The position numbers and the translations under genes were made by a program. A DNA stretch of 64,000 nt, taken from assembly GCF_044704955.1 (NCBI RefSeq), contig NC_091999.1:23250001-23314000 (forward strand). The letters are read 5' to 3'. The DNA comes from Pristiophorus japonicus. Its lineage: Eukaryota. Shown one piece after another: positions 14,205 through 64,000 of this stretch. The notes under the pieces are model-generated. The model was not told where the DNA came from and ran no database searches. It worked only from the letters and a program-made list of their open reading frames with translations. Each line of letters opens with the position of its first letter. The first letter of the stretch is position 1.

Positions 14205-15466
14205 ACTGAAAGGCAATCGAGACATTCTCATCGACAAGAATGACTAAGAAAGCTATAAAGAAAGGAAAGATACATTTCAAAGGTAAACTTGCGCAAAACA
14301 TGAAAAAGGATAGTAAAAGCTTTTACTAATATGTAAAACGGATAAGAGTGACTAAAATAAATGTTGGTCCCTTAGAGATGAGAAGGGGGATTTAATAATG
14401 GGAAATGTGGAAATTGCTGAGAGCTTAAACAATTATTTTGCTTCGGTCTTCACAATGGAAGACACAAAAACCATGCCAGAAATTGCTGGTCAAAGGAATG
14501 TGGGAAGGGAGGACCTTGAGACAATCACGATCACTTGGGGGGTCGTGCTGGACAGGCTAATGGGACTCAAGGTAGAGAAGTCCCCCGGTCCTGATGAAAT
14601 GCATCCCAGGGTATTAAAAGAGATGGCGGAAGTTATAGCAGATGCATTCGTTATAATCCACCAAAACTCTCTGGACTCTGGGGAGGTACCAGCGGATTGG
14701 AAAGCAGCTAATGTAAGGCCTCTGTTTAAAAAAGAGGGCAGATAAAAGGCAGGTAACTATAGGCCGGTTAGTTTAACATCTGTAGTGGGGAAAATGCTTG
14801 AAACTATCATTAAGGAAGAAAGTGCGGAACATCTAGATTGGAATAGTGCAATCAAGCAGACGCAGCATGGATTCATGAAGGGGAAATCATGTTTAACTAA
14901 TTTACTGGAATTCTTTGAGGATATAACGAGCATGGTGGATACAGGTGTACCGATGGATGTGCTATATTTAGATTTTCAAAAGGCATTCGATTAGGTGCCA
15001 CACAAAAGGTTACTGCAGAAGATAAAGGTACGCGGAGTCAGAGGAAATGTATTAGCATGGATAGAGAATTGGCTGGCTAACAGAAAGCAGAGAGTCGCGA
15101 TAAATGGGTCCTTTTTGGGTTGGAAATCTGTGGTTAGTGGTGTGCCACAGGGATCGGTGCTGGGACTACAACTGTTTACAATATATATAGATGACCTGGA
15201 AGAGGGGACAGAGTGTAGTGTAACAAAATTTGCAGATGAAACAAAGTTTAGTGGAAAAGCGGGTTGTGCAGAGAACACAGAGAGGCTGCAAAGAGATTTA
15301 GATAGGTTAGAGAATGGGCTAAGATTTGGCAAATGGAATACAATGTCGGAAAGTGTGAGGTCATCCACCTTGAGGGAAAAAAAACAGTAAAAGGGAATAT
15401 TATTTGAATGGGGAGAAATTATAACATGCTGCGATGCAGAGGGACCTGGGGGTCCTTGTGCATGAA
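14205..15466 (+). mobile_element. CR1 LINE (subfamily 1), 5' part of a split element
   Basis: ORF2 motifs KSPGPDEMHPRVLKE, QHGFMKGKSCLTNL, GVPQGSVLG, KFADET. It stops at ...gacctgggggtccttgtgcatgaa (DLGVLVHE) and resumes at 34729. Confidence 0.95.
15451..15466. repeat. Target-site duplication GGTCCTTGTGCATGAA (also at 20210-20225 and, with 1 mismatch, 34600-34615)
   Basis: The same 16-mer occurs at three junctions of the Tx1 stack and is native CR1 sequence at this position. Confidence 0.92.
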
Positions 15467-20209: not shown

Positions 20210-20225
20210 GGTCCTTGTGCATGAA

Positions 20226-36358: not shown

Positions 36359-37440
36359 TGTGAGAGATTCGCTAAACCCTCAACAACAGTTCTTGACTTC
36401 AGGATTTATAAAAACAAAATACACTCGGCACAGGGTTTTGGCTCAACCTTAAACTTGTATGTTTATTGAACTTGCGTTATTCCCCAGCACACAACCTCCC
36501 TGAGATTCTGACCGGAATAACACCGAACCCATAATACAAACCCCCTCCACAAGGTTACCTGAAACCTAACAGGAAATATCACAGTTTAACACCCTTCCAC
36601 GATTCGACTGCGATTATAAAACGACTGGGACAAATTCCCCGACGGTTTGACTGAAACTTATAATCACCCACACAGCTGGTGGTTGTGGTGTGGATTGTAG
36701 GCCGGGACCAGGTGACCACCCTGCATCCTCCTTCACTGCACTGTCCTCGCTCCGAAGTGGTCCTCTTTTTATGGGGCTTCATAATCACAGCATCAAACAT
36801 ATTTCCTGCTGTTCCCCTGTCGACTCTTCCGATGGTTAATAACCTCTTGATCATCAGTGTATTCCACTCCCTGGTCCAGACAGGGGCACGATCAGCTCTC
36901 CTGCTGTGTAGTACAATGCAAACCTTCCTTGGGAACAGGTCTGGCTCCACAGTTGAGGAATGTATGAATGTCCCTCTTCCTTCTTGACAGGGACCAGGGA
37001 CCATTGAAGGTGTGCATGGCCGGCGTCTGGTGCTATTGTCTGTGTTGATTAGATCGATGGCAGGTGTCCTGTATCATTGTCTCTGAAGATGTCCTTCCAG
37101 TCTCTCAATGAATCATCATTTCGCTGCAATGTTTGAATGAACCCCTTACTGTATAGCCCACCCTTTGGGTGTTTGTACTGAGGTTTGTTTTTTATTAACC
37201 CGTCCCACCGCCCGTGGGTTTTATATTCCATTCGACAATCCATTTTACAGTTGGGGTGAGGGTGGGTGGGGAACAGATCCGACAAGCCTTTATCCACTGA
37301 GCCATTGGGAGGAGGGTCCGGTGGCCCTACTGGAAAATGCACGTGTGAGGCCTCAGGTGAGAACAGTGGAATTGCCAGTCGACACTCACTGTCGAGGTTC
37401 ACACATGGAGTTTGGGCACATGGGTCACATATTGGAGAGA
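36359..37440 (-). mobile_element. Possible LTR-element remnant (short 3' LTR ~36359-36632 plus internal sequence)
   Basis: On minus: GGGGAATT, then TGT start, TTATAA, AATAAA (~36462) and a CA end at 36359. The internal ORFs are not recognisable. Confidence 0.35.
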
Positions 37441-37442
37441 AA

Positions 37443-37775
37443 CTGGTGAGTGTAGAACTGAACCCAGCCAGAGTCAGTACCTTCAGGGGAGGAGAGGGAA
37501 GGGAACCAGTGAGTGTAGAACTGAACCCAGCCAGAGTCAGTACCTTCAGGGGAGGAGAGGGAAGGGAACCAGTGAGTGTAGAACTGAACCCAGCCAGAGT
37601 CAGCACCTTCAGGGGAGGGGAACCAGTGAGTGTAGAACTGAACCCAGCCAGAGTCAGTACCTTCAGGGGAGGAGAGGGAAGGGAACCAGTGAGTGTAGAA
37701 CTGAACCCAGCCAGAGTCAGCACCTTCAGGGGAGGAGAAGGAGTGGAACAAGTGAGTGTGGAGCTAAACCCAGCA
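37443..37775. repeat. ~63-bp minisatellite (about 5.5 units)
   Basis: Unit ccagtgagtgtagaactgaacccagccagagtcagtaccttcaggggaggagagggaagggaa; one unit is shortened. Confidence 0.95.
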
Positions 37776-38679: not shown

Positions 38680-41600
38680 TGTGAGTAATAGAATAGATCA
38701 GATTATAATGTGAGATGTTTATAACTATAATTGTGAAACTATAAGAACTAACAGCAGGCAGGGTAGTTTAGGCATAATGAGAAAATTACTGAAGAAAAGT
38801 AAGTGCTGGGAACCAGGGAAAGTGTCCTTGTTAATCACATATTAGAGAAGTTCCAGCTGTCATTTCCTCACTTCCTGCCCAAACACAGCAGAGAAGACAA
38901 AGAAGAGTCCGGTGCCAGAGGTGGATCAGTGCCGGGTATAAAAGTGAGGGGAGACTGATGTAAGGGGGCAGTGGGCACTGGAGACACCGGAGATCAAGCT
39001 CAGGGCGCCCGAGGTTCCATCCAGCGGGCTGACCTGGTGTCAGTTACTGTGGACACGCGGGACTTGCATCTTTACTCTGATTGGTGGATCAGTATAAGAT
39101 ACGGTGGATGACGGAGAAACTGCTCATCTTATAGAAACATAGAAAATAGGTGCAGGAGCAGACCATTCAGCCCTTCTAGCCTGCACCGCCATTCAATGAG
39201 TTCATGGCTGAACATGAAACTTCAGTACCCTCTTCCTGCTTTCTCGCCATACCCCTTGATCCCCCGAGTAGTAAGGACTTCATCTAACTCCATTTTGAAT
39301 ATATTTAGTGAATTGGCCTCAACTACTTTCTGTGGTGGAGAATTCCACAGGTTCACCACTCTCTGGGTGAAGAGGTTTCTCCTCATCTCGGTCCGAAATG
39401 GCTTACCCCTTTTCCTTAGACTGTGACCCCTGGTTCTGGACTTCCCCAACATTGGGAACATTCTTCCTCCATCTAACCTGTCTAAACCCGTCAGAATTTT
39501 GAACGTTTCTATGAGGTCCCCTCTGATTCTTCTGAACTCCAGTGAATACGAGCCCAGTTGATCCAGTCTTTCTTGATAGGTCAGTCCCACCATCCCGGGA
39601 ATCAATCTGGTGAATCTTCGCTGCACTCCCTCAATAGCAAGAATGTCCTTCCTCAAGTTAGGAGACCAAAACTGTACACAATACTCCAGGTGTGGCGTCA
39701 CCAAGGCCCTGTACAACTGTAGCAACACGTCCCTGCACCTGTACTCAAATTCCCTCGCTATGAAGGCCAACATGCCATTTGCTTTCTTAACCGCCTGCTG
39801 TACCTGCATGCCAACCTTCAATGACTGATGTACCATGACACCCTGGTCTCGTTGCACCTCCCCTTTTCCTAATCTGTCACCATTCAGATAATAGTCTGTC
39901 TCTCTGTTTATACCACCAAAGTGGATAACCTCACATTTATCCACATTATACTTCATCTGCCATGCATTTGCCCACTCACCTAACCTATCCAAGTCACTCT
40001 GCAGCCTCATAACATCCTCCTCGCAGCTCACACTGCCACCTAACTTAGTGTCATCCGCAATTTTGGAGATACTACATTTAATCACCTCGTCTATATCATT
40101 AATGTACAATGTAAACAGCTGGGGCCCCAGCAGAGAACCTTGCGGTACCCCACTAGTCACTGCCTGCCATTCTGAAAAGCACCCATTTACTGCTACTCTT
40201 TGCTTCCTGTCTGACAACCAGTTCTCAATCCACGTCAGCACACTACCCCGAATCCCATGTGCTTTAACTTTGCACATTAATCTCTTGTGTGGGACCTTCT
40301 CGAAAGCCTTCTGAAAGTCCAAATATACCACATCAACTGGTTCTCCTTTGTCCACTTTACTGGAAACATCCTCAAAAAATTCCAGAAGATTTGTCAAGCA
40401 TGATTTCCCTTTCACTAATCCATGCTGACTTGGACCTATCATGTCACCATTTTCCAAATGCGCTACTATGACTTGCTTAATAATTGATTCCATCATTTTA
40501 CCCACTACTGAGGTCAGGCTGACCGGTCTATAATTCGCTGTTTTCTCTCTCCCTCCTTTTTTAAATATTGGGGTGACAATAGGAACTATCCAGAGTCAAT
40601 GGAATGTTGGAAAATGACTGTCAATGCATCCGCTATTAACAAGGCCACCTCCTCAAGTACTCTGGGATGCAGTCCATCAGGCCCTGGGGAATTATCTGCC
40701 TTCAATCCCATCAATTTCCCCAACACAATTTCCCGACTAATAAAGATTTCCCTCAATTCCTCCTGCTTACTGGACCCTCTGACCCCTTTTATATCCGGAA
40801 GGTTGTTTGTGTCCTCCTTAGTGAATACCGAACCAAAGTACTTGTTCAATTGGTCTGCCATTTCTTTGTTCCCCGTTATGACTTCCCCTGATTCTGACTG
40901 CAGGAAACCTACGTTTGTCTTTACTAACCTTTTTCTCTTTACGTACCGATAGAAACTTTTGCAATCCGCCTTAATGTTCCTTGCAAGCTTCTTCTCCCAC
41001 TCTATTTTCCATTCCCTATTCAAACCCTTTGTTCTCATCTGCTGCGTTCTAAATTTCTCCCAGTCCCCGGGTTCGCTGCTATTTCTGGCCAATTTGTATG
41101 CCACTTCCTTGGCTTTAATACTATCCCTGATTTCCCTAGATAGCCACGGTTGAGCCACCTTCCCTTTTTTTATTTTTACGCCAGACAGGAATGTTCATCC
41201 ATGCGTTCTCTAAATGTCTGCCATTGCCCATCCACAGTCAACCCCTTAAGTATCATTCGCCAATCTATCCTAGCCAATTCACGCCTCATACCTTCAAAGT
41301 TACCCTTCTTTAAGTTCTGGACCATGGTCTCTGAATTAACTGTTTCATTCTCCATCCTAATGCAGAAATCCACCATATTATGTTCACTCTTTCCCAAGGG
41401 GCCTCGCACAACGAGATTGCTAATTAATCCTCTCTCATTACACAACACCCAGTCTAAGCGGGCCTCCCTCCTAGTTGGTTCCTCGACATATTGGTCTAGA
41501 AAACCATCCCTTATGCACTCCAGGAAATCCTCCTCCACCGTATTGCTTCCAGTTTGGCAAGCCCAATCTATGTGCATATTAAAGTCACCCATTATAACTG

Positions 41601-41915
41601 CTGCACCTTTATTGCATACACCCCTAATTTCCTGTTTGATGCCCTCCCCAACATCACTACTACTGTTTGGAGGTCTGTACACAACTCCCACTAACGTTTT
41701 TTGCCCTTTGGTGTTCTGCAGCTCTACCCATATAGATTCCACATCATCCAAGCTAATGTCTTTCCTAACTATTGCATTAATCTCCTCTTTAACCAGCAAT
41801 GCTACCCCACCTCCTTTTCCTTTTATTCTATCCTTCCTTGTTTCTTATTAAGGTATTAAAGTTGCTGACACTGGACTCTGGAACTTGCTAATTAATAAGG
41901 AAAGGGACTTTTACA
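38680..41915 (+). mobile_element. Possible solo LTR split by a CR1 (arms 38680-39130 and ~41838-41915)
   Basis: TG start and TATAAAA at ~38937; after the CR1, ATTAAA and an ACA end. No TSD found. Confidence 0.4.
39131..41837 (-). mobile_element. CR1 LINE (subfamily 3), 5'-truncated within the endonuclease
   Basis: EN 41176-41799 (VVYRPP, GDFN), linker, 427-aa open RT/C-terminus 39222-40505 (IADD), (TTTCTATG)n tail. Confidence 0.97.
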
Positions 41916-42249: not shown

Positions 42250-43280
42250 TTTGGACTTTCAATTATTGGAAAAAATTCTGAGGGACAGGATAAATCTTCA
42301 TTCAGGAAGACCGGGATTAATCAGGGACATTCAGTACGGATTTGTTGATGGAAGGTCGTGTCTGACTAACCTGATTGCATTTTTGGAGGAGGTCACACGG
42401 AGGGTCGATGACGGTGTTGTGTTTGACGTTATGTATATGGATTTTAACAAGGCTTTTGATAAGATCCCACATGGCAGACTGGTCATGAAAGTAATAGCCC
42501 ATGTGATACAAGGCAAAGTAGCAACTTGGATCCAAAATTGGCTGAGGTCGGAAGCAAAGGTTAATGGTCAATGGGTGTTTTTGTGACTGGAAGGATGTTT
42601 CTGGTATACATCAAAGATTTAGACTTGAATGTCAGGGTTATGACTACGAAGTTTGCAGATGAGACGAAAATTGTCCATGTGGTTGATAATGAAGAAGAAA
42701 GCTGTAGACTGCAGGAAGGTATTAATGGACCTGTCAGGTGGGCAGAGCAGGGGCAAATGGAATTCAATCTGCAGAAGTGTGAGGTAATGCATTTGGTGAG
42801 GGCGAACAAGGAAAAGGAATACACAATAAATAGTCGGACACTGAGAAGTGTAGAGGAACAGGGGGACCTTGGAGTGTTTGTCCACTGATCCCTGAAGGTA
42901 GCAGAACAGGTCGACAAGGTGGTTAAGAAGGCATACGGGGTACTAGACTTTATTAGCCGAGGCATAGAATACAAGAGCTTGAACTGTATAAAACACTAGT
43001 TAGGCTACAGCTAGAATACTGCGTGCAATTCTGGTCATCACATTACAGAAAAGAGAAGGTATAGAAGAGTTTACCAGGGTGATGCCGGGACTGGAGAATT
43101 TTAGGTATGAGGAAAGATTGGATCGGCTGGGGTTATTTTCTTTGGAACAGAGGAGGCTGAGGGGAGAACTTATTGAGGTTTCTAAAATTATGAGGGGCCG
43201 AGATGGAGTCGTTAGGAGGGACCTATTCCTCTTAGCAGAGGGGTCAGTAACTAGGGGCATAGATTTAAAGTAATTGGTAG
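42250..43280 (+). mobile_element. Decayed CR1 fragment (subfamily 2-like)
   Basis: RT motifs QYGFVDGRSCLTNL, KFADET, QGDLGVFVH, with internal deletions. Confidence 0.9.
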
Positions 43281-44285
43281 AAACTTAGAAATTTACAGCG
43301 CAGGAGGCCATTTCGGCCCATCGTGTCCACGGCGACCGATAAACAGCCGCACGGTCCTCGGTCAGCAGCCCTGAAGGTTACATATAAACCTGTGAGCAAT
43401 GAACAATGGTGGAAAGGTAAAGAGCACCGAGCCAACCAGTCCGCCTCACACAACTGCGACACCCCTTACACTGAAACATTCTACACTCCACCCCAACCGG
43501 AGCCATGTGATCTCCTGGGAGAGGCAAAAACCAGATAAAAACCCAGGCCAATTGGGGGAAAAAATCTGTGAAAATTCCTCTCTGACCCATCCAGGCGATT
43601 GAAACGAGCCCAGGAGATCACTCTGGCCATATTCGATTTGCTGCAGTACTTACCATCGTATCTGCGCCAGCCAACAGGAGGTTATCCAGTCTAATCCTAA
43701 CTACCAGCTCTAGGTCCGTAACCCTGCAGATTACGGCACTTCAAGTGCCCATCCAAGCACCTTTTAAATGTGGTGAGCGCTTCTGCATCCACCATCCTTC
43801 CAGGCAGTGAGTTCCAGATCCCCACAACCCTCTGCGTGAAGAAGCCTCCCCTCAAATCCCCTCTGAGCCTTCCACCAACCACCTTAAAACCATGCCCCCT
43901 CGTAATTGACCTTTCCACCAAGGGAAATAGACCCTTGCTATCCACTATATCCATGCCTCTCAAAATGTTGTCACCGAATGAGGTCTCCTCTCAGCCTCCA
44001 CTGTTCCAATGAGAGCAAACCCAGCCTATCCAATCTGCCCTCACAGCTAAGATGCTGCATTCCAGCCAGCATCCAAGTAAATCTCTGTACCCTCTCTCGT
44101 GCAATCACATCCTTCCTATAATACTTCAACCAGAACTCCAGCTGTGGCCTAACCAGAGTGTTATACAATTGAAGCATAACCTGTGTGCTCTTGTATTCTA
44201 TGCTTCGGCCAGTAAAGGCAAGCATTCTGTATGCCTTCTTAACCACCTGATCCACCTGACCTGCTACCTTCAGGGATCTGTGGAC
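43281..44285 (-). mobile_element. CR1 (subfamily 2) 3' part with ~410-bp 3' UTR, cut by Tx1 copy D
   Basis: ORFs 43971-44288 (VHRSLKVAGQV...) and 43697-43963 (FFTQRVVGIWNSLP). The sequence stops exactly at the VH codons, where the Tx1 5' end begins. Confidence 0.9.
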
Positions 44286-47200
44286 CAATGGTGGAGCTTT
44301 GGAGGCGTGGCCTATTCAGTTGGAGCTGTGCTGCTGAGAGAGAAGGAACTCCCTGCTGAAGCTCCTGTCTGGAAGGCCGAGAGTGAGCCCTGAGACCAGC
44401 CCAGGAGTAGGAGGAAAGGGCTGGCTTGCTACAATACAACGTCCGGAGGGAGAGGAGGAGAGCTGAAAATTTCAACAACTTTATTTACTTCTACAGAGAG
44501 TTGGAGAGAGTGGGAAAAGAGCAACAACCTGTGTGGAAGGAGGGAGATTCTACAACATTCTACAGGTGGGTGTTGGTGCATTCCCCGAAATACATTGTTT
44601 TATTAGTGGGGGGAGAAAAGAAGATTTTCTTCGAGGCCCGGAACATCGCGGGGGGTGTGTGTGTGGAAGTGTGTGGGGGTCTTGCTCACAGCTAGGCCCC
44701 ACACACCACTGAAGCACCCCTCCCCAATTGCCTAGCCTGGGATAGATGGAGCAACCTTGCTGAAGATTTACTAATCACCCTATTAAACATCGTTGGGCGT
44801 GTGTGCCTGGGTGGCTCCAGCTGTCCTAGATGAAGACATCTTCTCCTCCCACCCGAAGACCATCCCATAAGACTGTGCCTTGCTTTGTTTTCCATCATCT
44901 AGGGAGTGCGCCCCAGAAAAACACCCACCAATCACTGTGAGGGGAGACCTTCCCTCACAGCTTCCCTCTTTCCCACCCCCCACTCCCTCTCTGTCTCTCC
45001 CGTCTCTCTCTGAGAGCTCCTTTCCTGCTTAATTGGAAAAACAATTAAGACAACTGAGCAGAGGGAGCAAGGCCCCTCCCCAATTGTCAACTAGGGGAGA
45101 GGTGTACCTCATTGAGAGCTCCTCTGCTCATAAATTCAAACGAGGCCAATTTAAGACCATTAAGGCCTGTGACTCTGGGGTGGGTGTTGCCATTAAAGGG
45201 ACCCCGTGATGGCGACTCCATCCACGCCGGTGGCAGGGCCAGCTAAGACTTATGCGCAGGTGGCGTCCACATCCACGGCGCCTCCTGCGCCACCTGCTGC
45301 CCTGCCACCATTCAGACTAATTTCTAAGAAAAACGGGGTCAAGAGCTACACTCACCCCACAATGAGCATTGAGGAGTGCGTGCGTGTGATGGCTGGGGTA
45401 GTCGGCCCCTCGGCCATTGTCGCAGCCTCCAAGATGACTGGGAAGGCCGTATTATTCCTGGGGTCGGAGTGGGCGGTGTCCCTGGCCCTTGAAAAGGGGC
45501 TCACTATGGGCGGGACATTCCTGCCGGTGGACCCTCTCGAGGCCACCGCGCACAGGGTCATCATTTCAAACGTCCCGACCTTTGTTCCCGCTGAGCTCCT
45601 CCTCCCTCACCTGCACCAACTGGGGGAGGTAAGGTCAGGGCTCAACCCCATACCGCTCGGCCTCAGGGAGAACAGTCTGCGCCATGTGTTCTCCTTCCGC
45701 CATCAGCTCTTTGTCCGGCTGGCGCTGGAGGAGACAACAGAGGGCAATTTTAATGTGGTGCACGAGGGGACTGCCTACCGCGTCTTCTGGACGTCGGATG
45801 GCGTGCGGTGCCATGCCTGTAGGGAGATGGGGCACTTTCGCAAGAACTGCCCCGCCTCCAAGACAACCAAACGACCGAAGGCAGCCAAGGCTGGCGCCGC
45901 CGCCACCCCTCCCCCTAGTAGCGTCCGCGTGCCGGGAGCCATAGGTGCGCGGGCATCGTCGGAGGCCTTTGTTTTCACGGCCTCTGGCGGGGGGGAGGGA
46001 GAGCGTCCGACCGGAAAGAAGGCGCGGAGGAAGGCGAAACATCTCGAGGCGGGTCCCCTCGGTGCGCCAGAAAGTTTGACCACGGCGCTCAGCCCAACCC
46101 CGTCACCGGCGAGCGCGGGGTGCCCTGAGCCCTTGCATGAGCCCTTGACCAATACCGCAGAGGGGCTCGGGCGCGGGCAAGATAAGAAAAAGGGGGGGGC
46201 GGAGCGGGAGGCCTCGGCAGACATGGAGGTCTCCCTGCCTCCGCGCACCCCCAGGAACAAAAGGAGGCGCCGCTCCAATGAGGCGGAGGGGGAACAACAT
46301 CCCTCCGCGGAGGAGTCGGTGCCCGCCGCCTGTCCCGCGTCCCCCACCAGCGCCCCCAAACTGCGCCGTCGGCGGGAGGAATCTGTCCCCGGGGAGGGAG
46401 GGGCAATCGAGGCTGCCCAGCCTCTGCCTCCCGTGGATGGCGTGGAAGATCTGCCTGTCGTGGGGGGCGTGGGGCCAGCGGAGGAATACGATGCCGCCGG
46501 GTCGAGCGTCCCGGGGACTGAGGCGGGTGGGGCCGAAATGGCCGAACCTGAGCCCACCCAGCTATTAACCAACTTCCCCGGGATTTTCTCGACTCAGCAG
46601 AAATACACAGTATTAACAATTTTAATCAATCTGTAGACGCTGACCGGAGGGTGGCGGCGGGGAGGGGGAAGAACAACAATCCTCGCCCCCTACTTTGGAG
46701 CTGGGGTACTTGGAGGACCTGGAACATTTCTTTGACCAGGTCTCTCCGTGTTGCCCGGTTCCTGGGGCGGAGGAGGAACCCCTTCTGCTGTCGCTTCCTG
46801 ACCCAGCACCACTTTTAAAAGAGCCCAGTGCGGACTGCTCGGCCGACGATCCTGGGGGTGGGGTCGGGGCAGAGCCAGGGTCGGATGGAGCGGCCGGGCC
46901 GTTTGCTGTACCTCGTGCGGTCGACGGGTCGGCTGCTGGCAGCGACCTCCGGAGTGGGACGGGGACTCGATGGGGGACTCGGGAGAAGATCTAGAGTCCA
47001 TCGCCAGTGAGGCGGTGGATCTCCTCGTGCCCACCGCTGAGACCCTCCTCATTCCTGCAAAGAAACTCCGGGACTTTTTGGTCCAGAGCCAGGGTCGCCG
47101 CAACCGAACCCATCTGTCCCGGGAAAGATGATCCGAGCCGGGGCTGCTCGTCGCGTCCATCCGCGCCGCCACTAAAACCATGGCCGCAGGCGGGCCGTTA

Positions 47201-47890
47201 TCAAAAGCTCAAGGCCTTGAGCTGCGCCGGCTCAAAGGGTTCCTCGCTGGGCTGCTGAAGGAGTGGAGGTCAACAAAAGACTCCACTCCCCCCCCCAAAA
47301 TAGGTTAGGTAGAGGTTGCACTATGCTTTTGTCATGAAGATAACCATAGCCAGCCTCAACATCAACGGCGGCAGAGAAGCACACCGTAGATTTAACAATT
47401 TTTCGCTCCTGCGGGAGTGGAAATATGCGGTGTGCTTCCTGCAAGAAACCCACACCGTTCCGGGAGACGAAGCCACGTGTCTCCTGGAATGGCAAGGAGA
47501 GGTCCGCATGAGCCACCTCACCGCCACTTCTAGTGGGGTGGCCATCTTGTTGGCCCCGCATTTTCAGCCGGAGATCTTGGGGGTCGAGGAGCCCGTGCCA
47601 GCCGCTTGCTGCACGTCACGGTTTGCCTGGGGGACGTGCAGCTCCATCTCGTGAACGTGTACGCCCCTCAGCCCGGCCTGCAGCAAATGCGCTTCTTTGA
47701 AGAGGTGTCCGCTCTTCTTGGCTCCGTCGACGTCGGCGACTGCATTGTCCTCGGGGGAGATTTTAACTGCACCCTCGAGGCGAGGGACCGCTCCGGTGCC
47801 CCGCAGAACATGACGGCGATGGAGAAGTTGAGGGACTTCTTGATGCTATGGTGGGACGTGGGCAAGGCTCACTTCCACGTCTTCTTGTGC
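44286..47890 (+). mobile_element. Tx1-clade retrotransposon, copy D (5' end intact, 3' part lost)
   Basis: Same 5' end CAATGGTGGAGCTTTGGAGG; ORF1 from 45206 (476 aa open, CCHC knuckle); ORF2 APE start near 47334; truncated after WWDVGKAH. Confidence 0.95.
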
Positions 47891-48295
47891 TGAAGTATTG
47901 CTTCCTCTGACTTGGATATGGCGTTATATTAGAGTCTCATTCAGCGCTTTACCCACCCGGTAAAAGTCCAATCCATTAAATATTTCGGTCATGACCCAGC
48001 ACCCTCACATAAGATCCACCGCTTCACACACTCCCAGTCACAACACCCAAACATCCCTTCCACTGGTACATTCAGTTCCTGTCCCACCATCCACACGTCC
48101 CATACATTGGTTCTTTCTGTACCTGTGCCAAACAGCACACGTCCCATCCGATGATTTCATCAGTCCTGACCCACACACCACAAGTCCCATTGGCTAGTTC
48201 ATTTCATCCTGACACATTTCACACGTAATTGTTTGAGACAGCTGTTATTGCTCTCAATCTGAAATATAAATTCCCTGTTTTTCTCTTCCCTGCAG

Positions 48296-49183
48296 TGAAC
48301 TTAGTGACAATAATGATCCTGTCTCGACGAAGGTGCGGTCTCTCCAAGTGTGTCAGCCGTTACCTGGTGGCAATGGCAGCGGTGGATCTACTGGTCGTTA
48401 TCCTCGACCTGATATCCAGGCAGATTCCTATTGGTTATTCAACCGCTTTTGAGTTCATGTGGGCCATTAAAGTGTGTAATATCCATGCCATCCTGCTTTA
48501 CGCAGTCACAGACTGTTCCGTCTGGTTCACAGTTGATTTTACCTTTGATCGATGTATAGCCATTTGTTGTCAGAAGCTCAAACCCAAATATTGCACCGAG
48601 AAAACGGTGACTGGGGTTGTGGGAGCAGTGAGTGCGCTGTTCTGTGCACAGAACACTTTCTGGTAGTTTATGTTTGGAGGTATGTATCAGATTTCCAATA
48701 ATCCCTGGTTTTGTTTTGTTATATGGGATGTCTATGCGTCACTAGCATGGGCAGTAATTGAATTCCTTCATTATATTATTACACCGTTTTTCCATTTGTT
48801 CTGATTCTTCTGCTCAATGCTTTAGCTGTCAAACACTTTTAGTATCGAGCAGAGCTCGTAGGCGACTCCGGGCCCACATTAGTGGGGAGGGTCCCAGTGA
48901 CCCAGAGATGGAGATGCGAAGGAAATCCATCATTTTACTCTTTGTTATATCCGGCAATTTTATCCTCTTGTGGGCAGTGTTTCTGTGCTCTTCTGTGGTT
49001 AATCGATTGTATTCGTTAAAATTTCTTTCTGCATATCTACCTGATTATATACAAGAATTGGGATTTATGCTTCAGCTCCTGAGTTGATGCATCAACACAT
49101 GTATTTATGCTGTGAAATTCAGAGAGGAGTTGAAGAATGTGGTGAAATATCCCTTTACTGTAATTTTTAAATGTATTAATTAA
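48296..49183 (+). pseudogene. GPR139/GPR142-like class A GPCR pseudogene, main exon
   Basis: Polypyrimidine plus AG acceptor at 48295. NLVTIMILSRRRCGLSKCVSRYLVAMAAVDLL, SVWFTVDFTFDRCIAICCQKLK, RRKSIILLF. Stops at 48664 and 49085 and a frameshift near 48790. Confidence 0.85.
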
Positions 49184-51874: not shown

Positions 51875-54310
51875 GGGCAGATCACAAATCGTAATTACAA
51901 TTAATAATAATAATTGGGATGTTTTGAAATGGAGTTAACAGATTTTTAAATGGATTCCACAACCTGATTATCAGACTGTTAAAAGCATGTGTGGGAAGCC
52001 TTCCGCACAGTGTCAGATGTTCCAATTCATAGACCAAAGGCCTTGGGAGCTGGGCACAGACACAGATAACATAGGATTTGAATTCTATAACAAAATACAA
52101 GTTAAATAAAAAGAATCATAACAACATGTATCCTGAATTACCAATTAAACATATAGAGGCCAGATTGGAGGAAGCAACCTACCAGATAATCATGTATTTA
52201 TTAATCAGCACGTATTAATTGTAACTTGCATAATTATGTAATGCTATAATCTGAAACTGTATAAAATAAGATGTCTCTGGCAGTTTCTCTGAGCATTCCT
52301 TCAAGGATAGCTCCCCTGTTGGCTTGTATCTTTTATTAATAAAAATTGCATTTACTTTAAGGCTAACGGACTCCGAGTGGTGATTTGAAGTTAACCCTAA
52401 CAACTTGACGCAGTCAGCAGGATCTAGTGGACGGGCAGATTAGACTCAAAAAGCCCACCAACCTAACAACGAATGAGTAGAGAATTACCTTGAGGAATTC
52501 TCCTCGCAAAGTAACCAGATCCAACGAATCTGAAGCAGAGTCTGTGCAGCCAGTAAATCCAGTTGAGGGGTGCGTCAGGACAAAATAAGTAAATACATGT
52601 GTCGGGAGAATAAGTACGTATACGGGATATCGGGGTAAAAGCCTCGGTGTAAATGGTTCCGCTTAAGTAAAGATGTTAAAACAGGAACTGGGGAAAAAGC
52701 CCCTGTGTAAGAAATGGCAAAGGAATCTTCTAAGGCATTTGGAGGGGTGATGTATAAACCACCAGAAGAGTTTCTGAGAGATAAATCTGAAAAGCTTAAG
52801 AAGATGGTTAAGGCAGGATATGATGAAGCGAAAAAGAGCAGTTTAACAGCCGGAAAGATGAATAGAAAGATACCCGAAGGTGAGATGGACAGAAAAAGTG
52901 ACAAAAGACAAGAGGATGTAAGTATAAAAATAGATATAGATGACAGAAGGGAATGGACAGAGGAATTTGCCCCAAATTTGTATCCCCACACTAACAGGGT
53001 TATGATTAGGAGCAGAGGAAAATAAAGGATTCATTGGGGCCAGAAGACTAGCTTAGTAGATATTTTTCCGAAGACCATAATAAAAACTGTTACTGACTAC
53101 CTTAAGTGAAGTATTGATCCGAAATTAGAGCCGGCCAAACAATAAGCTTTGTTGAATGAAGAGAGAACTTTGTGAATGTCTGTCTTTGAATGAAAGTGAT
53201 TGAGTGATTTTTGACTGCGGAATATTTGAGGTGGGAATTAATGAATTTTTCATGTGTCTGAAAGCCTGCTTCAGAAAGTGGTGGAGCTGTCTGTTGTTTT
53301 GGCTCCACCCACTTTTTCAGACAGAGTGAAAGTTTTTTTTAACCCTGTGCAGTGTTGTCCTGTATGAGGGAAGTTTTAAGAAAGTATGAACCTAGAATTG
53401 AATTACATTTTAATTTAGAAACCCACTTGTGTATTTATTCGGAAGATATGTTCTGGAGCTCGGAAATGCACAAAGGACAGATTTGTCAAGCAAAAGATAA
53501 AAAATGCATGTTGGTTTAAAAAAAAATTACTGGGGAAGTACGCCCCATATTCCTTTGTGTAAACACTTGATGAAAAAGCTTCTAGCTCAGTAAAAATATT
53601 TTTAAATAAATTGTGTAAATAATGTTACCTGAATATTGTAAACCAGGGGAATAAACCTTGGGAAATTGCGTGGTAGTTAAACCTGGAACAGAAGTAATGT
53701 TGTTATTTGACAATGTCCAGCATGAAATGTGACCTGTGAGCATAAATTGAACAGCCAGAAAAAATTAGCCACAAGACGAAAGCATTGTAAACATGATTGC
53801 TAGACCCAATCCTGAGAATAGCTAGTGACACATCAGGAGCAAGGGAGTAACACAAGCAGCTGAGACACAAAGAAGGAAGAAAGAGGAGATCTATAGCAAA
53901 TGACGTATTAACTGTACAGGGACATCTCTAGTAGGTGCACCAGATATACAGGTGATCCAGGCAAGTGTAGATAGTTTGAGGGGAACAACGGATTTACTAA
54001 TCAGGAAACAGACCAGGATTGGGATAGAATCTTCACAGTTAGGATCCAAAACATCCAAAAAAATGCTACAGGGTGTATCCGTATTGGAAGGCCATGCACG
54101 AACAATTAACGAGCTAAATAAGCAGGAATTGAGAGGACGATGCCGAGGACAGGAAAAGAGACACATGTCATGCCTATGGGAGGTGGATGATTGGTCAGGT
54201 GAGACACAATGTGGATCAGATACAAACCGGGCAAGTTACAGATTCAATAAATAGCACCCAGTTAAAAGAAATGGCACAGCACACTGGGCCATTAGATGCA
54301 TGCACCCTGA
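51875..54310 (+). mobile_element. ERV-C remnant: LTR, tRNA-Ser PBS, leader/gag-like region and env fragment, no pol
   Basis: TATAAAA ~52260, AATAAA ~52338, LTR end CCCTAACA at 52402, PBS TGACGCAGTCAGCAGGAT at 52406-52423. Env RKRR|SIANDVLT ~53878 and CHAYGRWMIGQVRHNVDQIQTGQV. Confidence 0.75.
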
Positions 54311-57300
54311 AACATAGAAACATAGAAACATCGAAAAAGTTTGCAAGAATAGACCATTCGCCCCTTCAAGCCTGCACCAACATTCAATAAGATCATGGCT
54401 GATCATTCACCTCAGTACCCCTTGACAGCTTTCGCACCACACCCCTTGATCCCATTAACTTAACGGCCATATCCAACTCCCTCTTGAATATATCTAATGA
54501 ACTGGCATCAACAACGTTCTGCGGAAGAGAATTCCACATGTTAACAACTCTCTGAGTGAAGAAGTTTCTCCTCATCTCGGTCCTAAATGGCTTATCCCTT
54601 GTCCTCAGACTATGACCACTGGTTCTGGACTTCCCCAACATCGGGAACATTCTTCGTGCATCTAACCTGCCCAGTCCCGTCAGAATGTTTCTGAGGTCCC
54701 CTCTCATTCTTCTAAACACCAGTGAATACAGACCCAGTCGATCCTATCTCTCCTCATATGTCAGTCCTCCCATCCCGGAAATCAGTCTGGTGAACCTTTG
54801 CTGCACTCCCTCAATAGCATGAACGTCCTTCCTCAGATTAGAACAAAACTGAACACAGTATTCCAGGTGAGGTTTCACCAAGGCCCAGTACAGCTGCTCT
54901 ATTAAAATCCCCAAGATATGGGGCCAACATGCTATTTGCCTTCTTTCTGTCTCCTGCACCTGCATGACAACCTTCAATGACTGATGTACCATGACACCCG
55001 GATCTCGTTGCACTTCCCCTTTTCCTCTTCTGCCGCCATTCAAATAATATTCTGCCTTCGTGTTTCTGCCACCAAAGTGCATAACCTCACATCTATCCAC
55101 ATTACACTACATCTGCCATGCAATTGCCCACTCACCTAACCTGTCCAAATCACCCTGCAGCCTCTTAGCATCCTCCTCACATTTCACACCGCCATCCAGC
55201 ATATTGTCATCTGCAAACTTGGAGATATTATTCAAAATTCCTTCATCTAAATCATTGATGTATATTGTAAATTGCTGGCGTCCCAGCACTGAGCCCTGCG
55301 GCACCCAACTAGTCACTGCCTGCCATTATGAAAATAACCCGTTTATCCCGACTCTCCACTTCCTGTCTGCCAATGAGTTCTCTATCCACGTCAATACATT
55401 ACCCCCAATACCATGTGCTTTAATTTTGCACACCAACCTCTTGTGTGGGACCTTGTCAAAAGTATTTTGAAAGTCCCACTACACCATATCCACTGGTTCT
55501 CGTTTGTCGACTCTACTAGTTACATCCTCACACAATTCTAGAAGATTTGTCAAGCTTGATTTTCCATTCATAAATCCATGCTGACTTGGACCAATCCTGT
55601 CACTGCTTTCCAAATGGGCTGCTATTTCATCTTTATAAATTAATTACGACATTTTCCCCACCACTGATGTCAGGCTAACTGGTCTATAATTACCCGTTTT
55701 CTCTCTCCCTCCTTTTTCAAAATGTGCTGTTAGATTAGCTACCCTCCAGTCCATACAAACTGATGGAGAATCGATGGACTGTTGGAAAATAATCACCAAT
55801 GCATCCACTATTTCTAGGGCCACTTCCTTAAGTACTCTGGGATGCAGACCATCAGGCCCCGGGGATTTATTGGCCTTTAGTCCCATCAATTTCCCTAACA
55901 CAATTTCGCACAAATAAGGATTTTCTTCAGTTCCTCCTTCTCACTAGCCCCTCGGTCACGTACCATTTCCAAAAGATTATGCGCGTCTTCCTTCGTGAAG
56001 GCAGAACCAAAGTATTTGTTCAACTGGTCTACCATTTCTTTGTTCCCTATTATAAATTCACCTGAATCTGACTGCAAGGGACCTACGTTTGCCTTCACTA
56101 CTCTTTTTCTCTTCAAATATTTATAGAAGTGTTTATGTTCCCAGCAAGCTTCCTCTCATACTCTATTTTCCCCCTCCTAATTAAACCCTTTGTCCTCCTC
56201 TGCTGAATTCTAAATTTCTCCCCGTCCTCGGGTTGATGCTTTTTCTGACCAATTTATATGCCTCTTCCTTGGATTTAACGCTATCCTTAATTTACCTTGT
56301 TAGCCACGGTTGAGCCACCTTTCCCATTTTATTTTTACTCCAGACAGGGATGTCCAATTGTTGAAGTTCATCCATGTGATCTTTATATGTTTTCCATTGC
56401 CTATCTGCCGTCAACCCTTTATGTATCATTTCCCAGTCTATGCTAGCCAATTCATGTCTCATACCATCGAAGTTACCTTTGCTTAAGTTCACGACCCCAG
56501 TCTCAGAATTAATTGTTTCACTCTCCACCTTAACAAAGAATTCTACCTTATTGTGGTTACTCTTCCCCAAGGGGCCTCGCACAACAAGATTGCTAATTAG
56601 TCCTTTCTCATTACACATCAAGCAGTCGAGGATGGCCAGCCCTCTAGATGGTCCCTCGACATATTGGTCGAGAAAACCATCCCTAATACACTCCAGAAAA
56701 TCCTTCTCCACCGTATTACTACCAGTTTGGTTAGCCCAATCTATGTGTAGATTAAAGTCGCCCATGATAACTGATGTCCCTTTATTGCACACATCCCTAC
56801 TTTCTTGTTGGATGCTGTCAGCAAACTCACTACGATTGTTTGGTGGTACACAACGCCCACTAGCGTTTTTTTCCCTTTGATATTCCACAGATCCACCCAC
56901 GTGGAATCCACACGAATGTCCTTCCTGACTATTGCATTAATTTCCTCTTCAACCAGCAATGCCACCCACCTCCTTTTCCTTTGTGTCTATCCTTCCTGAC
57001 TGCTGAATACCCCTGGATGTTGCGTTCCCGGCCTTCGTCAACCTGGAGCCATTTCTCCATGATGCCAATTGCATCATATTCATTAATTGCTGCCTGTGCA
57101 GTTAATTTGTCCACCTTATTCCGAATACTCCTCGCATTGAGGCACAGTGCCTTCAGGCTTGTTATCTTAACACACCTTGTCCCTTAGAAGTTTGCTGCAA
57201 TATGGCCCTTTTTGATTTTTTACTTTGGGTTTATCTGCCCTCCACCCTTACTTTTCTGCCCCCAAAGGTTCCCATCCCGCTGCCATATCAGTTTAACCCC

Positions 57301-57746: not shown

Positions 57747-57829
57747 TACCAGGAGTGGGGTTCGAACCCATGCAGGTATAAACCCTTTGGATTTTCCGTC
57801 CAACGCCTTAACAACTCGGCCATCCTGGT
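57747..57829 (-). tRNA. tRNA-Leu(TAA)-derived pseudogene, anticodon loop mutated (CGGAAAA)
   Basis: ACCAGGATGGCCGAGTTGTTAAGGCGTTGGA...GGGTTCGAACCCCACTCCTGGTA matches the vertebrate tRNA-Leu(TAA) body. Confidence 0.85.
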
Positions 57830-58340: not shown

Positions 58341-59099
58341 GCTGACGGGTGTGGATTCTGTCAGTGCAGGAATCGAGCTGAGAACAGAAATGGACACCAT
58401 GAGAAGTAGACAGACACATTGAGAGACAGAGACAAACCGACAAACAGGGAGAGACAGACAGCGAGATAGAGACAACGTGAGACAGAAAGTGTGAGACTGA
58501 GAAGGAGAGGCAGACTGAGTGAGAAAAAGACACAAACACACACACATACAGATATAAAGAGAGAGAGGGAAACAGTGAGAGAAAGACAGTGATAAAGACA
58601 GTAACAAGGAGAGAGACAGATGAAGAGTGAGCGACAGATAGAGAGATATAGAGAGATATAAACAGAAAATGATGGAAATACTCAGCAGGTTAGAGACAGG
58701 AACTAACAGAGACAGGCAAATAGAGACAGACAGGTCGAGACATAGACAGACAGAGATGATGGGAATGAGAGAGACAGTCAGACAGAGAGACTGAGAGAAT
58801 CCCACTGGAACAGAACTGGACATCGTGAGAAAGAGACAGACACGTTGAGAGACAGACAAAGAGGGAAACAGGGAGAGACAGACAGCGAGATAGAGGCAAA
58901 GAGAGACAGAATGTTTGAGATTGAGAGGGAGGGTCAGTCTGAATGAGAAAACGACTCAAACACATACATACACAGAGATGTGTTTGTGTGCTCCATAAAG
59001 AGAAGGAGGCAAATATGATGCAATGACAGAGACAAAGCCAGGGACAATGAAAGAAACAAAGAGGGAGACAGATAGAGAGAAAGACAGATAGAGACAATA

Positions 59100-60826
59100 A
59101 TTCGGTTCTGTCTTTACAAAGGAAGATACAAAAAACCTTCCGAATGTACGAGGGGACTGTGCATCTCGTGAGAATGAGGAACTGAAAGATATCCTTATTG
59201 GCGGGAAATTGTGTTGGAGAAATTGTTGGGATTAAAAGCCGATAAATCCCCGGCTCCTGATAGTCTGCATCCCAGAGAACTTAAGGAAGTGGCCCTAGAA
59301 ATAGTGGATGCATTGTTGATCATTTTCCAACAATCTATCGACTCTGGATCAGTTCCTATGGACTGGAGGGTAGCTAATGTGATGGCACTTTTTAAAAAAG
59401 GAGGGAGAGAGAAAGCAGCTAATTATAGACCAGTTAGCCTGGCATCAGTCGTGGGGAAAATATTGGAATCAATCATTAAGGATGAAATACAACCCATTTG
59501 GAAAGCAGTGACAGGATCGGACCGAGTCAGCATGGATTTATGAAAGTGAAATCACGCTTGACGAATCTTCTGGAATTTTTTGAGGATGTAATGAGTAGAG
59601 TGGACAAGGGAGAACCAGTGGATGTGGTGTATTTGGACTTTCAATAGGCTTTTGACAAGGTCCCGCACTAGAGATTGGTGCACAAAATCATAGCGCATGG
59701 TATTGGGATTAATGTACTGACATGGATAAAGAACTGGTTGGCAGACAGGATGCAGAGAATCGGGATAAACGGGTCCTTTTCAAACTGGCAGGAAGTGACT
59801 AGTGGGGTGCCGCAGGGCTCAGTGCTGGGACTCCAGCTCTTTACAATATACATGAACGATTTGGTTGAAGGAATAGAGTGTAATATCTCCAAGTTTGCGG
59901 ATGACACTAAACTGGGTGGCGGTCCGAGCTGTGAAGAGGATGCTAAGAGGCTGCAGGGTGAATTGGACAGATTAGGTGAGTGGGCAAATGCATGGCAGAT
60001 GCTGTATAATGTGGATAAATGTGAGGTTATCCATTTTGGGGGCAACAACACGAAGGCAGAATATTATCTAAATGGCGGAAAACTAGAAATAGGGGAGGTG
60101 CAGTGAGACCTTGGTGTTATGGTTCATCAGTCACTGAAAGTGGGCATGCAGGTACAGCAGCCGGAAAAGAAGGCAAATGGTATGTTGGCCTTCGTAGCTA
60201 GAGGATTTGAATATAGGAGCCAGGAGATCTTACTGCAGTTGTACAAGGCCTTAGTGAGGACACACCTGGAATATTGTGTTCAGTTTTGGTCTCCTAGTCT
60301 GAGGAAGGACGTTCCTGCTGTTGAGGGAGTGCAGCGAAGGTTCACCAGACTGATTCCAGGGATGGCAGGACTGTCATATGAGGAGAGATTGGATCAACTA
60401 GGCCTTTAATCACTGGCGTTTAGAATGATGAGAGGGGATCTCATAGAATCATATAAGATTCTGACGGGAATGCACAGGTTAGATTCGGGAAGAATGTTCT
60501 CGATGTTGGGGAAGCCAGAACCAGGGGACATAGTCTTAGGATAAGATGTAGGCCATTTAGCAGTGAGATGAGTAGAAACTTCTTCACTCAGAGAGTTGTT
60601 GACCGGTGGAATTCCCTGCCACAGAGAGTTGTTGAAGCCAGTTTATTGGATATATTCAAGAGAGAGTTAGATATGGTCCTTACGGTTAAGTGGATGAAGT
60701 GGGATGGAGAGGAAAACAGGAAAGGGTAACTGAAAGAATGATCAGCCATGATAATATTGAATGGCGGTGCAGGCTCGAAGGGCCTAATGGCCTACTCCTG
60801 CAGCTTTTTTCTATGTTTCTATGTTT
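59100..60826 (+). mobile_element. CR1 LINE (subfamily 3), 5'-truncated
   Basis: RT pieces 59211-60409 (KFADD), C-terminus and TTTCTATG tail at ~60808-60826. Confidence 0.95.
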
Positions 60827-61407
60827 CAAAAACAGAAAATGATGGAAACGCTCATCAGATTAGAGACAGGGACAAAATGAGACAGGCAAAAACACGGACA
60901 GGGAGTGCTGCACTTGAGTGTTTGCCAAGATGATAATGCTCAGAAGTGCGACTTGAACACACAAACTCCCGATTCAGTCGAGAATGCTGCCACTGAAACA
61001 AAGCCAATACAAAAGTTCACAACCTTATTATTTCCCCCAAGTCTGTTTTATAAGTTCCAGGACATACCAAATTCATGGTGATGATTTCCACAGACAGTTG
61101 CACATACACAGAGACATATATAGAGATAGACAGACACAGACACACACACACATAAACAAAAATTTGCACGCACCAACGGGCATGCACAGATGCCTTCGTC
61201 ATCTCGAGGGATAGACAGGCTGAATCACTCGCAACTTTGACTGATGCTTGCGATTTTTGAAACGGATCTATCGTGAATATTGCAGATTAATTAAAATGAG
61301 AAAAAAATGTCAGTGTTGAAAGCTGTGGGACGTTATTCCATCTATCTCAGGATCAGTTTGGCAGAGAACGGGTTAAATTGTGAAATGGAATGAAAAATAC
61401 TGAGAAT

Positions 61408-61488
61408 GGTAGTCGGCAGGATTCGAACCTGCGCGGGATAACCCAATGGACTTCCAGTCCATCGCCTTAACCACTCGGCCACGAGTCC
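61408..61488 (-). tRNA. tRNA-Ser(AGA)-derived copy, anticodon reads GGA, acceptor stem mismatched (probable pseudogene)
   Basis: GGACTCGTGGCCGAGTGGTTAAGGCGATGGACTGGAAGTCCATTGGG...GGTTCGAATCCTGCCGACTAC. Confidence 0.8.
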
Positions 61489-61707
61489 TGTGTTGCTGCG
61501 TTTTTTCACGTTACTCAGAAAAAACTCAGTCATCCATCTCTGTGCTGCAGACGGCCAAAGACTCCTGAAAAATTCTCCGTTTGCTAAAAATCTGGACGGG
61601 GCAATCTCCTCCACCTGTATTTTTACAGTTCGATATTGCTCTGGAACTTTTTAATATGAATCTCTTCCAAGAAACAGAAGTAAAATTATACGATTTGAAA
61701 TAACTGC

Positions 61708-61779
61708 CTCCCCCTCGGGGAATTGAACCCCGGTCTCCCACGTGACAGGCTGAGATACTCACCACTATACTAACGAGGA
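61708..61779 (-). tRNA. tRNA-Asp(GTC), several stem mismatches (possible pseudogene)
   Basis: TCCTCGTTAGTATAGTGGTGAGTATCTCAGCCTGTCACGTGGGAGACCGGGGTTCAATTCCCCGAGGGGGAG, with a TTTT terminator ~22 nt downstream. Confidence 0.85.
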
Positions 61780-62556
61780 ACTGACATGTACCAATTCTGT
61801 CAGAGCAGTAATCGAGCCACTGTGAACAGAACTGGGCACCATGAGAAGTCGACAGACACATTGAGAGACAGAGACAAACCGACAAACAGGGAGAGACAGA
61901 CAGTGAGATAGAGACAACGAGAGACAGAAAGTGTGAGACTGAGAAGGAGAGGCAGACTGAGTGAGAAAAAGACTCAAACATATACATATACAGAGACGTG
62001 TGTGAGTGATCTATTAAGAGAGAGGGAAAGAGTGATAGAAACATAATGATAAAGAAAGTGACAAGGAGACAGATGGAGAGAGAGCGATAGTGACTAAAAC
62101 AGAAAATGATGGAAATACTTCTCAGCTTAAAGGCAGGGACTAACAGAGACAGGCAAAGACATGGACAGACCGAAATGATGGGAAAGAGAGAGCCAGTCAG
62201 ACAAAGAGTCTGAGAGAATCCCATTGGAACAGACGTGGCACCGTGAGAAAGAGACAGATTGAGAGACAGAGACAAACAGAGAAACAGGGACAGCCAGAGT
62301 GAGTCAGACTGAGAGAGACAATTTCATCCGAAAGTCAACAGCTTCAACATTGCAAAATTCCCCAAGTGCTGCACTTGAGTGTTAGCCAAGATGATAATGC
62401 TCAAGTCTCAGAAGTGCGACTTCAACACACAAACTCCCGATTCAGTCGAGAATGCTGCCACTGAAACAAAGCCGATACAAAATTTCACAACCTTTTAATT
62501 TGCACCAAGTCTTTTTTATGAGTTCCAGGACATACCAAATTCATGATGATGATTTA

Positions 62557-63364
62557 TAGAAACATAGAAACATAGAAATATAGAAAATAGGTGCAGGAGT
62601 AGGCCATTCGGCCCTTCTAGCCTGCACCGCCATTCAATGAGTTCATGGCTGAACATTCAACTTCAGTACCCCATTCCTGCTTTCTCGCCATACCCCTTGA
62701 TCCCCCTAGCAGTAAGGACCTCATCTAACTCCTTTTTGAATATATTTAGTGAATTGGCCTCAACAACTTTCTGTGGTAGAGAATTCCACAGGTTCACCAC
62801 TCTCTGGGTGAAGAAGTTCCTCCGCATCTCGGTCCTAAATGGCTTACCCCTTATCCTTAGACTGTGACCCCTGGTTCTGGACTTCCCCAACATTGGGAAC
62901 ATTCTTCCTGCATCTAACCTGTCTAACCCCGTCAGAATTTTATATGTTTCTATGAGGTCCCCTCTCATTCTTCTGAACTCCAGTGAATACAAGCCCAGTT
63001 GATCCAGTCTTTCTTGATAGGTCAGTCCCGCCATCCCGGGAATCAGTCTGGTGAACCTTCGCTGCACTCCCTCAATAGCAAGAATGTCCTTCCTCAGGTT
63101 AGGAGACCAAAACTTTACACAATACTCCAGGTGTGGCCTCACCAATGCCCTGTACAACTGTAGCAACACCTCCCTGCCCCTGTACTCAAATCCCCTTGCT
63201 ATGAAGGCCAACATGCCATTTGCTTTCTTAACCGCCTGCTGCACCTGCATGCCAACCTTCAATGACTGATGTACCATGACACCCAGGTCTCTTTGCACCT
63301 CCCCTTTTCCTAATCTGTCACCATTCAGATAATAGTCTGTCTCTCTGTTTTTACCACCAAAGTG
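62557..63364 (-). mobile_element. Young 5'-truncated CR1 inserted in a tRNA-array spacer
   Basis: Open ORF2 C-terminus and (TTTCTATG)n tail. The flanks rejoin to the uninterrupted spacer seen at ~61070-61110 (gatgattt|ccacagacag). Confidence 0.95.
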
Positions 63365-63687: not shown

Positions 63688-63768
63688 GGTAGTCGGCAGG
63701 ATTCGAACATGCGCGGGATAACCCAATTGATTTCTAGTCCATCGCCTTAACCACTCGGCCACGACTAC
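63688..63768 (-). tRNA. tRNA-Ser(AGA), with mismatches in the anticodon and T stems
   Basis: GTAGTCGTGGCCGAGTGGTTAAGGCGATGGACTAGAAATCAATTGGG...ATGTTCGAATCCTGCCGACTAC. Confidence 0.85.
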
Positions 63769-63987
63769 TGTGTCGCTGCCTTTTCAAACTTTACTCAGAA
63801 AAAACTCAGTCATCCATCTCTTTGCAGCAGACGGCCAAAGACGCCTGAAAAATTCTCCGTTTGCTAAAAATCTGGACGAGGCAATCTCCTCTATCTGTAT
63901 TTTTACAGTTCGATATTGCTCTGGAACTTTTTAATATGAATCTCTTCCAAGAAACAGAAGTAAAATTCTACATTTTGAAACACCTGC

Positions 63988-64000
63988 CTCCCCGTCGGGG
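63988..64000 (-). tRNA. 3' end of the next tRNA-Asp (cut by window edge)
   Basis: ctccccgtcgggg in the same repeat position as 61708. Confidence 0.75.

Follow-up and report, generated by a model that had tools for sequence, protein, structure and literature searches.

A retrotransposon copy in the genome of the shark Pristiophorus japonicus, here called copy D, is probably a separate antisense insertion of a Tx1L-lineage element at a site in ORF2 of CR1 LINEs, a site that is homologous in two CR1 subfamilies, and this locus was later multiplied by segmental duplication. We consider it likely that the endonuclease of this family nicks its target at ^TC(TG), where ^ is the nick, and that full-length copies complete their insertion by annealing a target-derived RNA leader of approximately 10 nt to the cut. 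Copy D lies in a stretch of 64,000 nucleotides of contig NC_091999.1 (positions 23,250,001–23,314,000; RefSeq assembly GCF_044704955.1), which was analyzed as a whole and is referred to as the window. Comparison of the window with itself revealed four related elements: three on the minus strand at 15467–34600, arranged head to tail (copies A, B, and C), and copy D on the plus strand. The features at copy D are as follows.

42880–42892, plus strand: empty R-type site with one base changed, in a plus-strand CR1 adjoining the host of copy D (alignment)
43279–44285, minus strand: host of copy D, the 3′ piece of an R-type (VHRSLK) CR1 LINE, truncated at the target site (sequence comparison and alignment with empty copies)
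44277–44285, plus strand: TCTGTGGAC, 9-bp target-derived leader or apparent target duplication of copy D; the nick is between 44276 and 44277
44286–47886, plus strand: copy D, a Tx1L-lineage element with 5′ UTR, ORF1, and the start of ORF2 (self-comparison of the window)
45209–46636, plus strand: ORF1 of copy D up to a frameshift, with a visible CCHC knuckle (Pfam zf-CCHC, 19.9 bits)
47334–47886, plus strand: ORF2 of copy D, broken start, encoding an APE-type endonuclease with Ser at residue 67 (sequence)

At the junction, TCAGGGA (44270–44276) is followed by the 9-mer and then by CAATGG, the start of the element, at 44286; unoccupied copies of the VHR|SLK subfamily read RDLGVLVHRSLKV at the site. 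The junction letters agree with the preliminary description of this DNA, in which copy D was placed antisense in a minus-strand CR1 at VH-R|SLK. The loss of the 3′ end and of the second target duplication, also stated there, was confirmed: after an internal deletion near 47836, the element stops at 47886, and its 3′ end, the second repeat, and the other half of the host are gone.

The other three copies form an array that interrupts a plus-strand CR1 of the E type, at VHE|SQK, with the following parts.

14386–15466, plus strand: part of the E-type (VHESQK) CR1 host to the left of the array; 15452–15466 is the 15-mer TTCATGCACAAGGAC on the minus strand
15467–20210, minus strand: copy A, internally deleted, both ends E-type (sequence comparison)
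20226–27422, minus strand: copy B, with an R-type front and leader (27423–27431) and an E-type tail (sequence comparison and tree)
27432–34600, minus strand: copy C, with an E-type leader (34602–34615) and an R-type tail (sequence comparison and tree)
34616–34728, minus strand: tRNA-Asp with its own short flanks, joined to a very short Tx1 tail (AAAAGAG), at the same target site (sequence)
34729–35420, plus strand: part of the E-type CR1 host to the right of the array (sequence comparison)

Copies B and C are mosaics of the R and E types, and the R-type tandem joint at 27423–27431 inside this E-type array likely came from exchange with another array. The tRNA-Asp insert has no 5′ repeat, is the same in all five paralogues that contain it, and looks like a template-switch chimera. 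Small-RNA heads were also found beside truncated Tx1 copies or bare tails at other loci (5S rRNA at L180:6995–7103; tRNA-like at L220, L305, L204, and L211). Chimeras of small RNAs and Tx1 are recurrent, and they are possible SINE seeds.

The breakpoints of the two hosts fall in the same alignment column. The left half of the array host ends GTGCATGAA at 15466 and the host of copy D reads GTCCACAGA|TCCC, and in an alignment that included empty copies, the shared column lies just after the RDLGV motif. The site of copy D is therefore indeed that of the split CR1 at VH-E|SQK, as had been proposed. The opposite orientation and the divergence of the host were also correctly described: copy D is on the plus strand and copies A–C are on the minus strand, each antisense to its own CR1, and the two hosts are 68% alike over 139 nt. 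The host of copy D was 82–85% alike to each of the five empty R-type sites tested, and the halves of the array host were 92–94% like E-type flanks and 69–73% like R-type flanks, the subfamilies being about 70% alike. The two hosts are thus different CR1 subfamilies that carry the homologous site. The host LINE is identified here as a CR1, a name that no matched protein carries; it has an RT near bird and turtle CR1-type RTs, the RDLGV motif, and a short tandem tail. The RT of the CR1 copy at 39225–40595 of the window shared about 50% of its residues with many LINE RTs of birds and 72–82% with those of rays and sharks, and the two target hosts are 68–74% like this copy. Other CR1 subfamilies are present in the window at 39131–41838, 54309–56997, 59094–60827, and 62556–63364; they have VHQSLK where aligned and no TC after the nick position. 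In the samples read, these subfamilies were never a host at the site.

The element was classified mainly with copy C, in which the Pfam domains Exo_endo_phos and RVT_1 both scored above the cut-off. When the endonuclease was compared with the PDB, the matches were L1 endonucleases, the best being a Tx1L-loop chimera (2V0R). The ORF2 protein of Xenopus laevis Tx1L (YTX2_XENLA, P0213) was 51% identical over the whole 676-aa query and 64% identical in the RT core. In an RT tree of 19 rows, built without any L1 row and with a very long outgroup, a starred clade of six rows united the family with P0213 and with sturgeon and turtle proteins (97/95). A CCHC knuckle in ORF1 is a feature of the Tx1 clade, and the zf-CCHC score of ORF1 in copy D (19.9 bits) lies just below the Pfam cut-off of 20.8. 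Judged from the endonuclease and RT comparisons, the family is assigned to the Tx1L lineage of non-LTR retrotransposons, within the Tx1 clade. Tx1L proper is recognized by its insertion in Tx1D, and the flanks found here are LINE ORF2 sequence.

The insertion site was surveyed across the genome with exact sequence patterns, and the places were listed contig by contig; searches with the ends of the window gave mostly paralogues on contig C23 and were not used as a sample. The patterns read backwards gave no matches genome-wide, and the pattern counts are therefore not due to chance. There were 775 exact matches to the front of the element, and in the first 30 read, all on contig C1, the front followed the target 9-mer or 15-mer without exception: 19 lay directly in R-type CR1, eight were in tandem with the R 9-mer, and three had the E 15-mer. 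Joints with the E leader numbered 202 exact matches, and the 30 read were divided between E-type CR1 directly (10) and the back of a Tx1 tail (20). The 3′ ends, sampled with the tail pattern of the R lineage alone, gave 111 exact matches; among the 70 read, 38 were at the R site, 11 were stacked on a resident copy, one was at the E site, and 20 were elsewhere, including two at different positions in CR1. In the available part of Kojima (2015; PMC4494074), an element is regarded as target-specific when one repeat type makes up over 20% of its flanks; here, the figures were 50 of 70 for the 3′ ends and 30 of 30 for the 5′ ends. All 35 full-length copies were on site, and all 20 off-site copies were 5′-truncated (Fisher p = 4e-8, 69 rows); the front was determined for every on-site copy except one. 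Where the repeat was readable, truncated copies had duplications of 13–16 bp. Copies were also shown to stack in tandem on the 5′ joint of a resident one, and one copy (L197) was inserted into the front of a resident copy with a 15-bp duplication. At least 4,486 exact R-type sites (28-mer) had neither the extra purine described below nor a full-length front. The survey of further loci thus confirmed a site-specific family across the genome. Also seen were minimal insertions of the last 10–15 tail bases only, between two E-type repeats (L291, L296, L311, and L320), and a locally amplified array in which one 345-bp truncated insertion occurs four times about 8 kb apart (L298–L301; G000:C1:353.52–353.54 Mb).

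The preliminary description had proposed GGGA^TYYRTGSAC as the shared core of the target. This motif proved to be the union of two host sequences, and as a recognition core it is ruled out by 15 off-site targets, of which 14 had TC after the nick, 10 had TCTG, and none had GGGA before it. GGGA is therefore not required, and only ^TC(TG) is retained. The nick position in E hosts is certain to within one base.

The 9-mer had also been taken for an ordinary target duplication, but it is probably of another kind, because full-length and truncated joints differ. Full-length R-host copies have the 9-bp repeat only. An extra A or G was found exactly at the nick in 26 of 40 full-length R-host joints, compared with none of nine truncated R-host joints (p = 4e-4), and none of 10 full-length E-host joints had an extra purine. 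Genome-wide, sites with the extra purine gave 239 exact matches, and 99 of the 100 listed were filled. The extra-base state was not inherited: it changed 19 times on the tree, against a mean of 20.5 after shuffling, and 56 of 200 shuffles were as low. Similarly, in 44 copies lying directly in CR1, the upstream flank did not co-vary with the lineage of the element in any of five windows; a long co-transcribed or converted upstream flank is ruled out by the lack of such a signal. Based on these two results, we infer that the extra base arises at each insertion and that a long flank does not travel with the element. Both repeats held host variants of the 9-mer in four of 12 truncated copies versus one of 40 full-length copies. 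The unshared variants of full-length copies (seven on the 5′ side versus eight on the 3′ side) do not separate overwriting from the choice of perfect sites. Two truncated E-host copies (L191 and L316) had an extra G near the nick, so nick repair can add purines too.

The joints suggest the following likely course of insertion, with a predicted RNA leader and a predicted transcription start. The first nick would separate AGA (or GAA) from TCCC on the sense strand of CR1 and would prime reverse transcription, which may be aided if the 3′ end of the RNA contributes a few read-through bases for pairing; the second cut would fall about 14 nt further. An internal promoter would start transcription about 10 nt before CAATGG, and in R hosts, the RNA would begin at the A beside the nick. 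The end of the cDNA would then pair with the 14-nt overhang across the 9-mer, the unpaired AAGCA would be trimmed, and the first RNA base or a copied cap would often be retained as the extra A or G. A transcript starting at this point would begin within the 15-mer in E hosts, with no extra base left behind. The requirement for homology between leader and target would account for the on-site position of all full-length copies read.

These steps have precedents in the available parts of two papers: one describes tandem arrays of R1 and an R1A RNA that bears target sequence (Stage and Eickbush, 2009; PMC2718515), the other a cap-derived G in L1 (PMC11702581). According to the former, Drosophila R1 has a 14-bp duplication, tandem arrays formed by insertion at the resident 5′ duplication, and off-target copies, and in melanogaster-type R1A, the target-bearing RNA anneals and gives precise full-length joints. 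However, R1 belongs to the R1 clade and targets 28S rDNA, and the R1A joint is a 9-bp deletion upstream of the nick, whereas the shark joint repeats 9 bp and has its extra purine at the nick. In human L1, full-length 5′ joints have an extra G that the latter paper ascribes to the RNA cap; there, the G is found where the duplication ends and homology is slight, whereas the extra base in the shark precedes the 9-mer, at the nick itself, and is A more often than G.

The sublineages each keep to one host subfamily. Among 34 whole units outside the window, 21 were R-type at both ends and 13 were E-type at both ends; none had mixed ends, and a single branch with a support of 100 separates the two groups. 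The leader type clustered on a tree of the fronts, with six changes against 16.8 after shuffling and none of 500 shuffles as low (50 of 60 rows, the other ten being omitted for too little ORF1). All 38 R-host tails fell in one starred clade of 42, together with three E-host tails and copy C; 28 of the 38 had been chosen by an R-type pattern, and the other 10 were in the same clade, with one junk row (L266_5305) on a long branch. Cross-host insertion might leave an E host with an R leader, a hybrid leader in an R host, or an E-type tail joint in an R host; none of the three gave a match to exact patterns genome-wide, which counts against the explanation proposed above, and a fixed leader that enters the other host without change is ruled out by the first two. 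A joint one T shorter in E hosts (149 matches) had been predicted to mark the R lineage there, but this was ruled out, as the R lineage accounted for three of the 21 tails placed on the tree and the rest were mostly of the E lineage; the shorter joint is therefore no marker of cross-host events. We tentatively suggest, as a possibility that is open to considerable doubt, a hyperparasite of LINEs now divided into host races between two CR1 subfamilies, in which short target-derived RNA ends and not the endonuclease would keep the choice of host, and each full-length insertion would record the RNA start as a single base at the nick.

It is rather unlikely that the endonuclease alone accounts for these observations, with a longer DNA motif setting both site and subfamily (Ser67 for E and Cys67 for R), a variable second cut, a 9-bp joint produced by a four-base microhomology between the GGAC start of the element and the overhang, and an extra purine that is a non-templated gap-filling base. 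Both joints do end in GGAC, an extra G does occur in the two truncated E-host copies, and S67C was the only near-fixed change between R and E units across 240 endonuclease residues: Cys or a Cys-derived codon was present in 20 of 21 R units and in nine of 10 further readable R copies (Cys), and Ser was present in all 13 E units. However, copy D, L177, and L329 have Ser67 despite their R hosts, and Tx1L, whose target is a different one, and a sturgeon relative have Cys at this position. S67C is therefore a weak candidate for the determinant of host choice. Moreover, off-site targets retain TC(TG) alone, and the extra purine is confined to full-length R-host copies.

We regard as improbable a homing-like copying of DNA, in which the cut end invades an occupied locus or a resident neighbor and copies its front joint. 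The constant agreement of leader and host, the R/E mosaics in copies B and C, and the tandem pairs, in which the neighbor was the best front match in five of 14 (median 0.91 versus 0.88), are consistent with such copying, but the extra base is not inherited, the flank is independent of lineage in the 44 copies directly in CR1, and many copies with the extra base are singletons. Copying from a resident is thus weakened as an explanation for singletons; it may contribute inside arrays, as the five tandem pairs suggest.

The locus of copy D has itself been multiplied. Among the 30 best matches to the front of copy D, one was copy D, 26 had 1.3–1.4 kb of its flank at 94–99% identity, two matched the CR1 part alone (82–83%), and one was a tandem copy. 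The flank common to copy D and the 26 paralogues includes the junction of two unrelated CR1 pieces, and the 3′ break with the sequence that follows it was the same in all six paralogues read (96–99%). The joint between copies C and B was present at 20 of 29 D-like places, 13.9–16.9 kb away and in the same arrangement. Copy D with its flank therefore belongs to a segmental duplication of at least 27 paralogues, in which the array is carried as well. The duplicated segment is at least 29 kb long, with more than 20 repeats at 94–99% identity in both orientations (G000:C23:17–64 Mb), and the D-like places are mostly on C23. Because copy D and the array share one duplicated segment, each counts as one locus; the duplication is later than both insertions and so does not undo their independence. 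Copy D was 89.6% identical to copy B, 90.0% to copy C, and 94% to R-host copies on contig C1, with which it forms a starred clade. These identities, and the position of its nearest kin elsewhere, rule out copy D as a duplicate of B or C. The earlier argument against simple local duplication was hence right in that copy D was not copied from A–C, but not in that copy D plus its flank is itself duplicated, with 26 paralogues. Copy D is a separate insertion that had already lost its 3′ part when it was multiplied. That it is merely a segmental duplicate, with the shared site an artefact of duplication, is extremely improbable: 26 of the 29 other top matches are paralogues of its locus and 20 of 29 places also hold the array, but the paralogues copy D and not A–C, and same-site insertions with unrelated outer flanks occur on C1–C21 and beyond, so this explanation is refuted for the family and holds for the copy number of D alone. 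The family is a real, target-specific Tx1, to which copy D adds a second host subfamily while counting as one event, not 27. The duplicated segment also holds a broken single-exon gene of the rhodopsin GPCR family at 48229–49140 on the plus strand (7tm_1, E = 3e-4, below the cut-off). Elsewhere in the window are a repeated tRNA-Ser/tRNA-Asp unit (61408–61780 and 63688–64000), a tRNA-Phe (57747–57829), and a tandem repeat with a unit of about 63 bp (37434–37774).

Among known elements, Tx1L likewise has two ORFs and a target within another mobile element, according to the available parts of two papers (PMC4494074; PMC1950540). Its target, Tx1D, is a non-autonomous piggyBac DNA transposon, in contrast to the LINE coding region of two subfamilies targeted in the shark. 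The crocodilian families Tx1-Mar, Tx1-8_Crp, Tx1-4_AMi, and Tx1-9_AMi and SINEU are similar in preferring transposons (Mariner, LTR, Harbinger), partly in antisense, and in having tandem copies around one duplication and small-RNA heads (Kojima, 2015; PMC4494074). However, the available part of that paper names no LINE target for them, and the heads in the shark are tRNA and 5S, in single chimeras. The same part lists as Tx1 targets Tx1D, U2, U5, 5S, satellites, microsatellites, Mariner, Harbinger, and LTR elements, with no LINE among them. We found no CR1-targeting Tx1 in the literature searched; one could be described in Repbase reports, in the supplements of PMC4494074, or in subscription papers, for example Kojima and Fujiwara (2004).

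The known targets of Tx1 are small-RNA genes, microsatellites, DNA transposons, and LTR elements. By targeting a fixed position within the coding sequence of a different LINE, the family gains a safe harbor: the empty copies run to thousands (at least 4,486 exact R-type sites), and the dated insertions run to hundreds. The mechanism of 5′ joining in non-LTR elements is still under debate, and this one site, occupied by both full-length and truncated copies and present in two host sequences, offers a natural experiment with a countable scar. In addition, a pair of lineages one endonuclease residue apart makes targeting by protein versus RNA directly testable.
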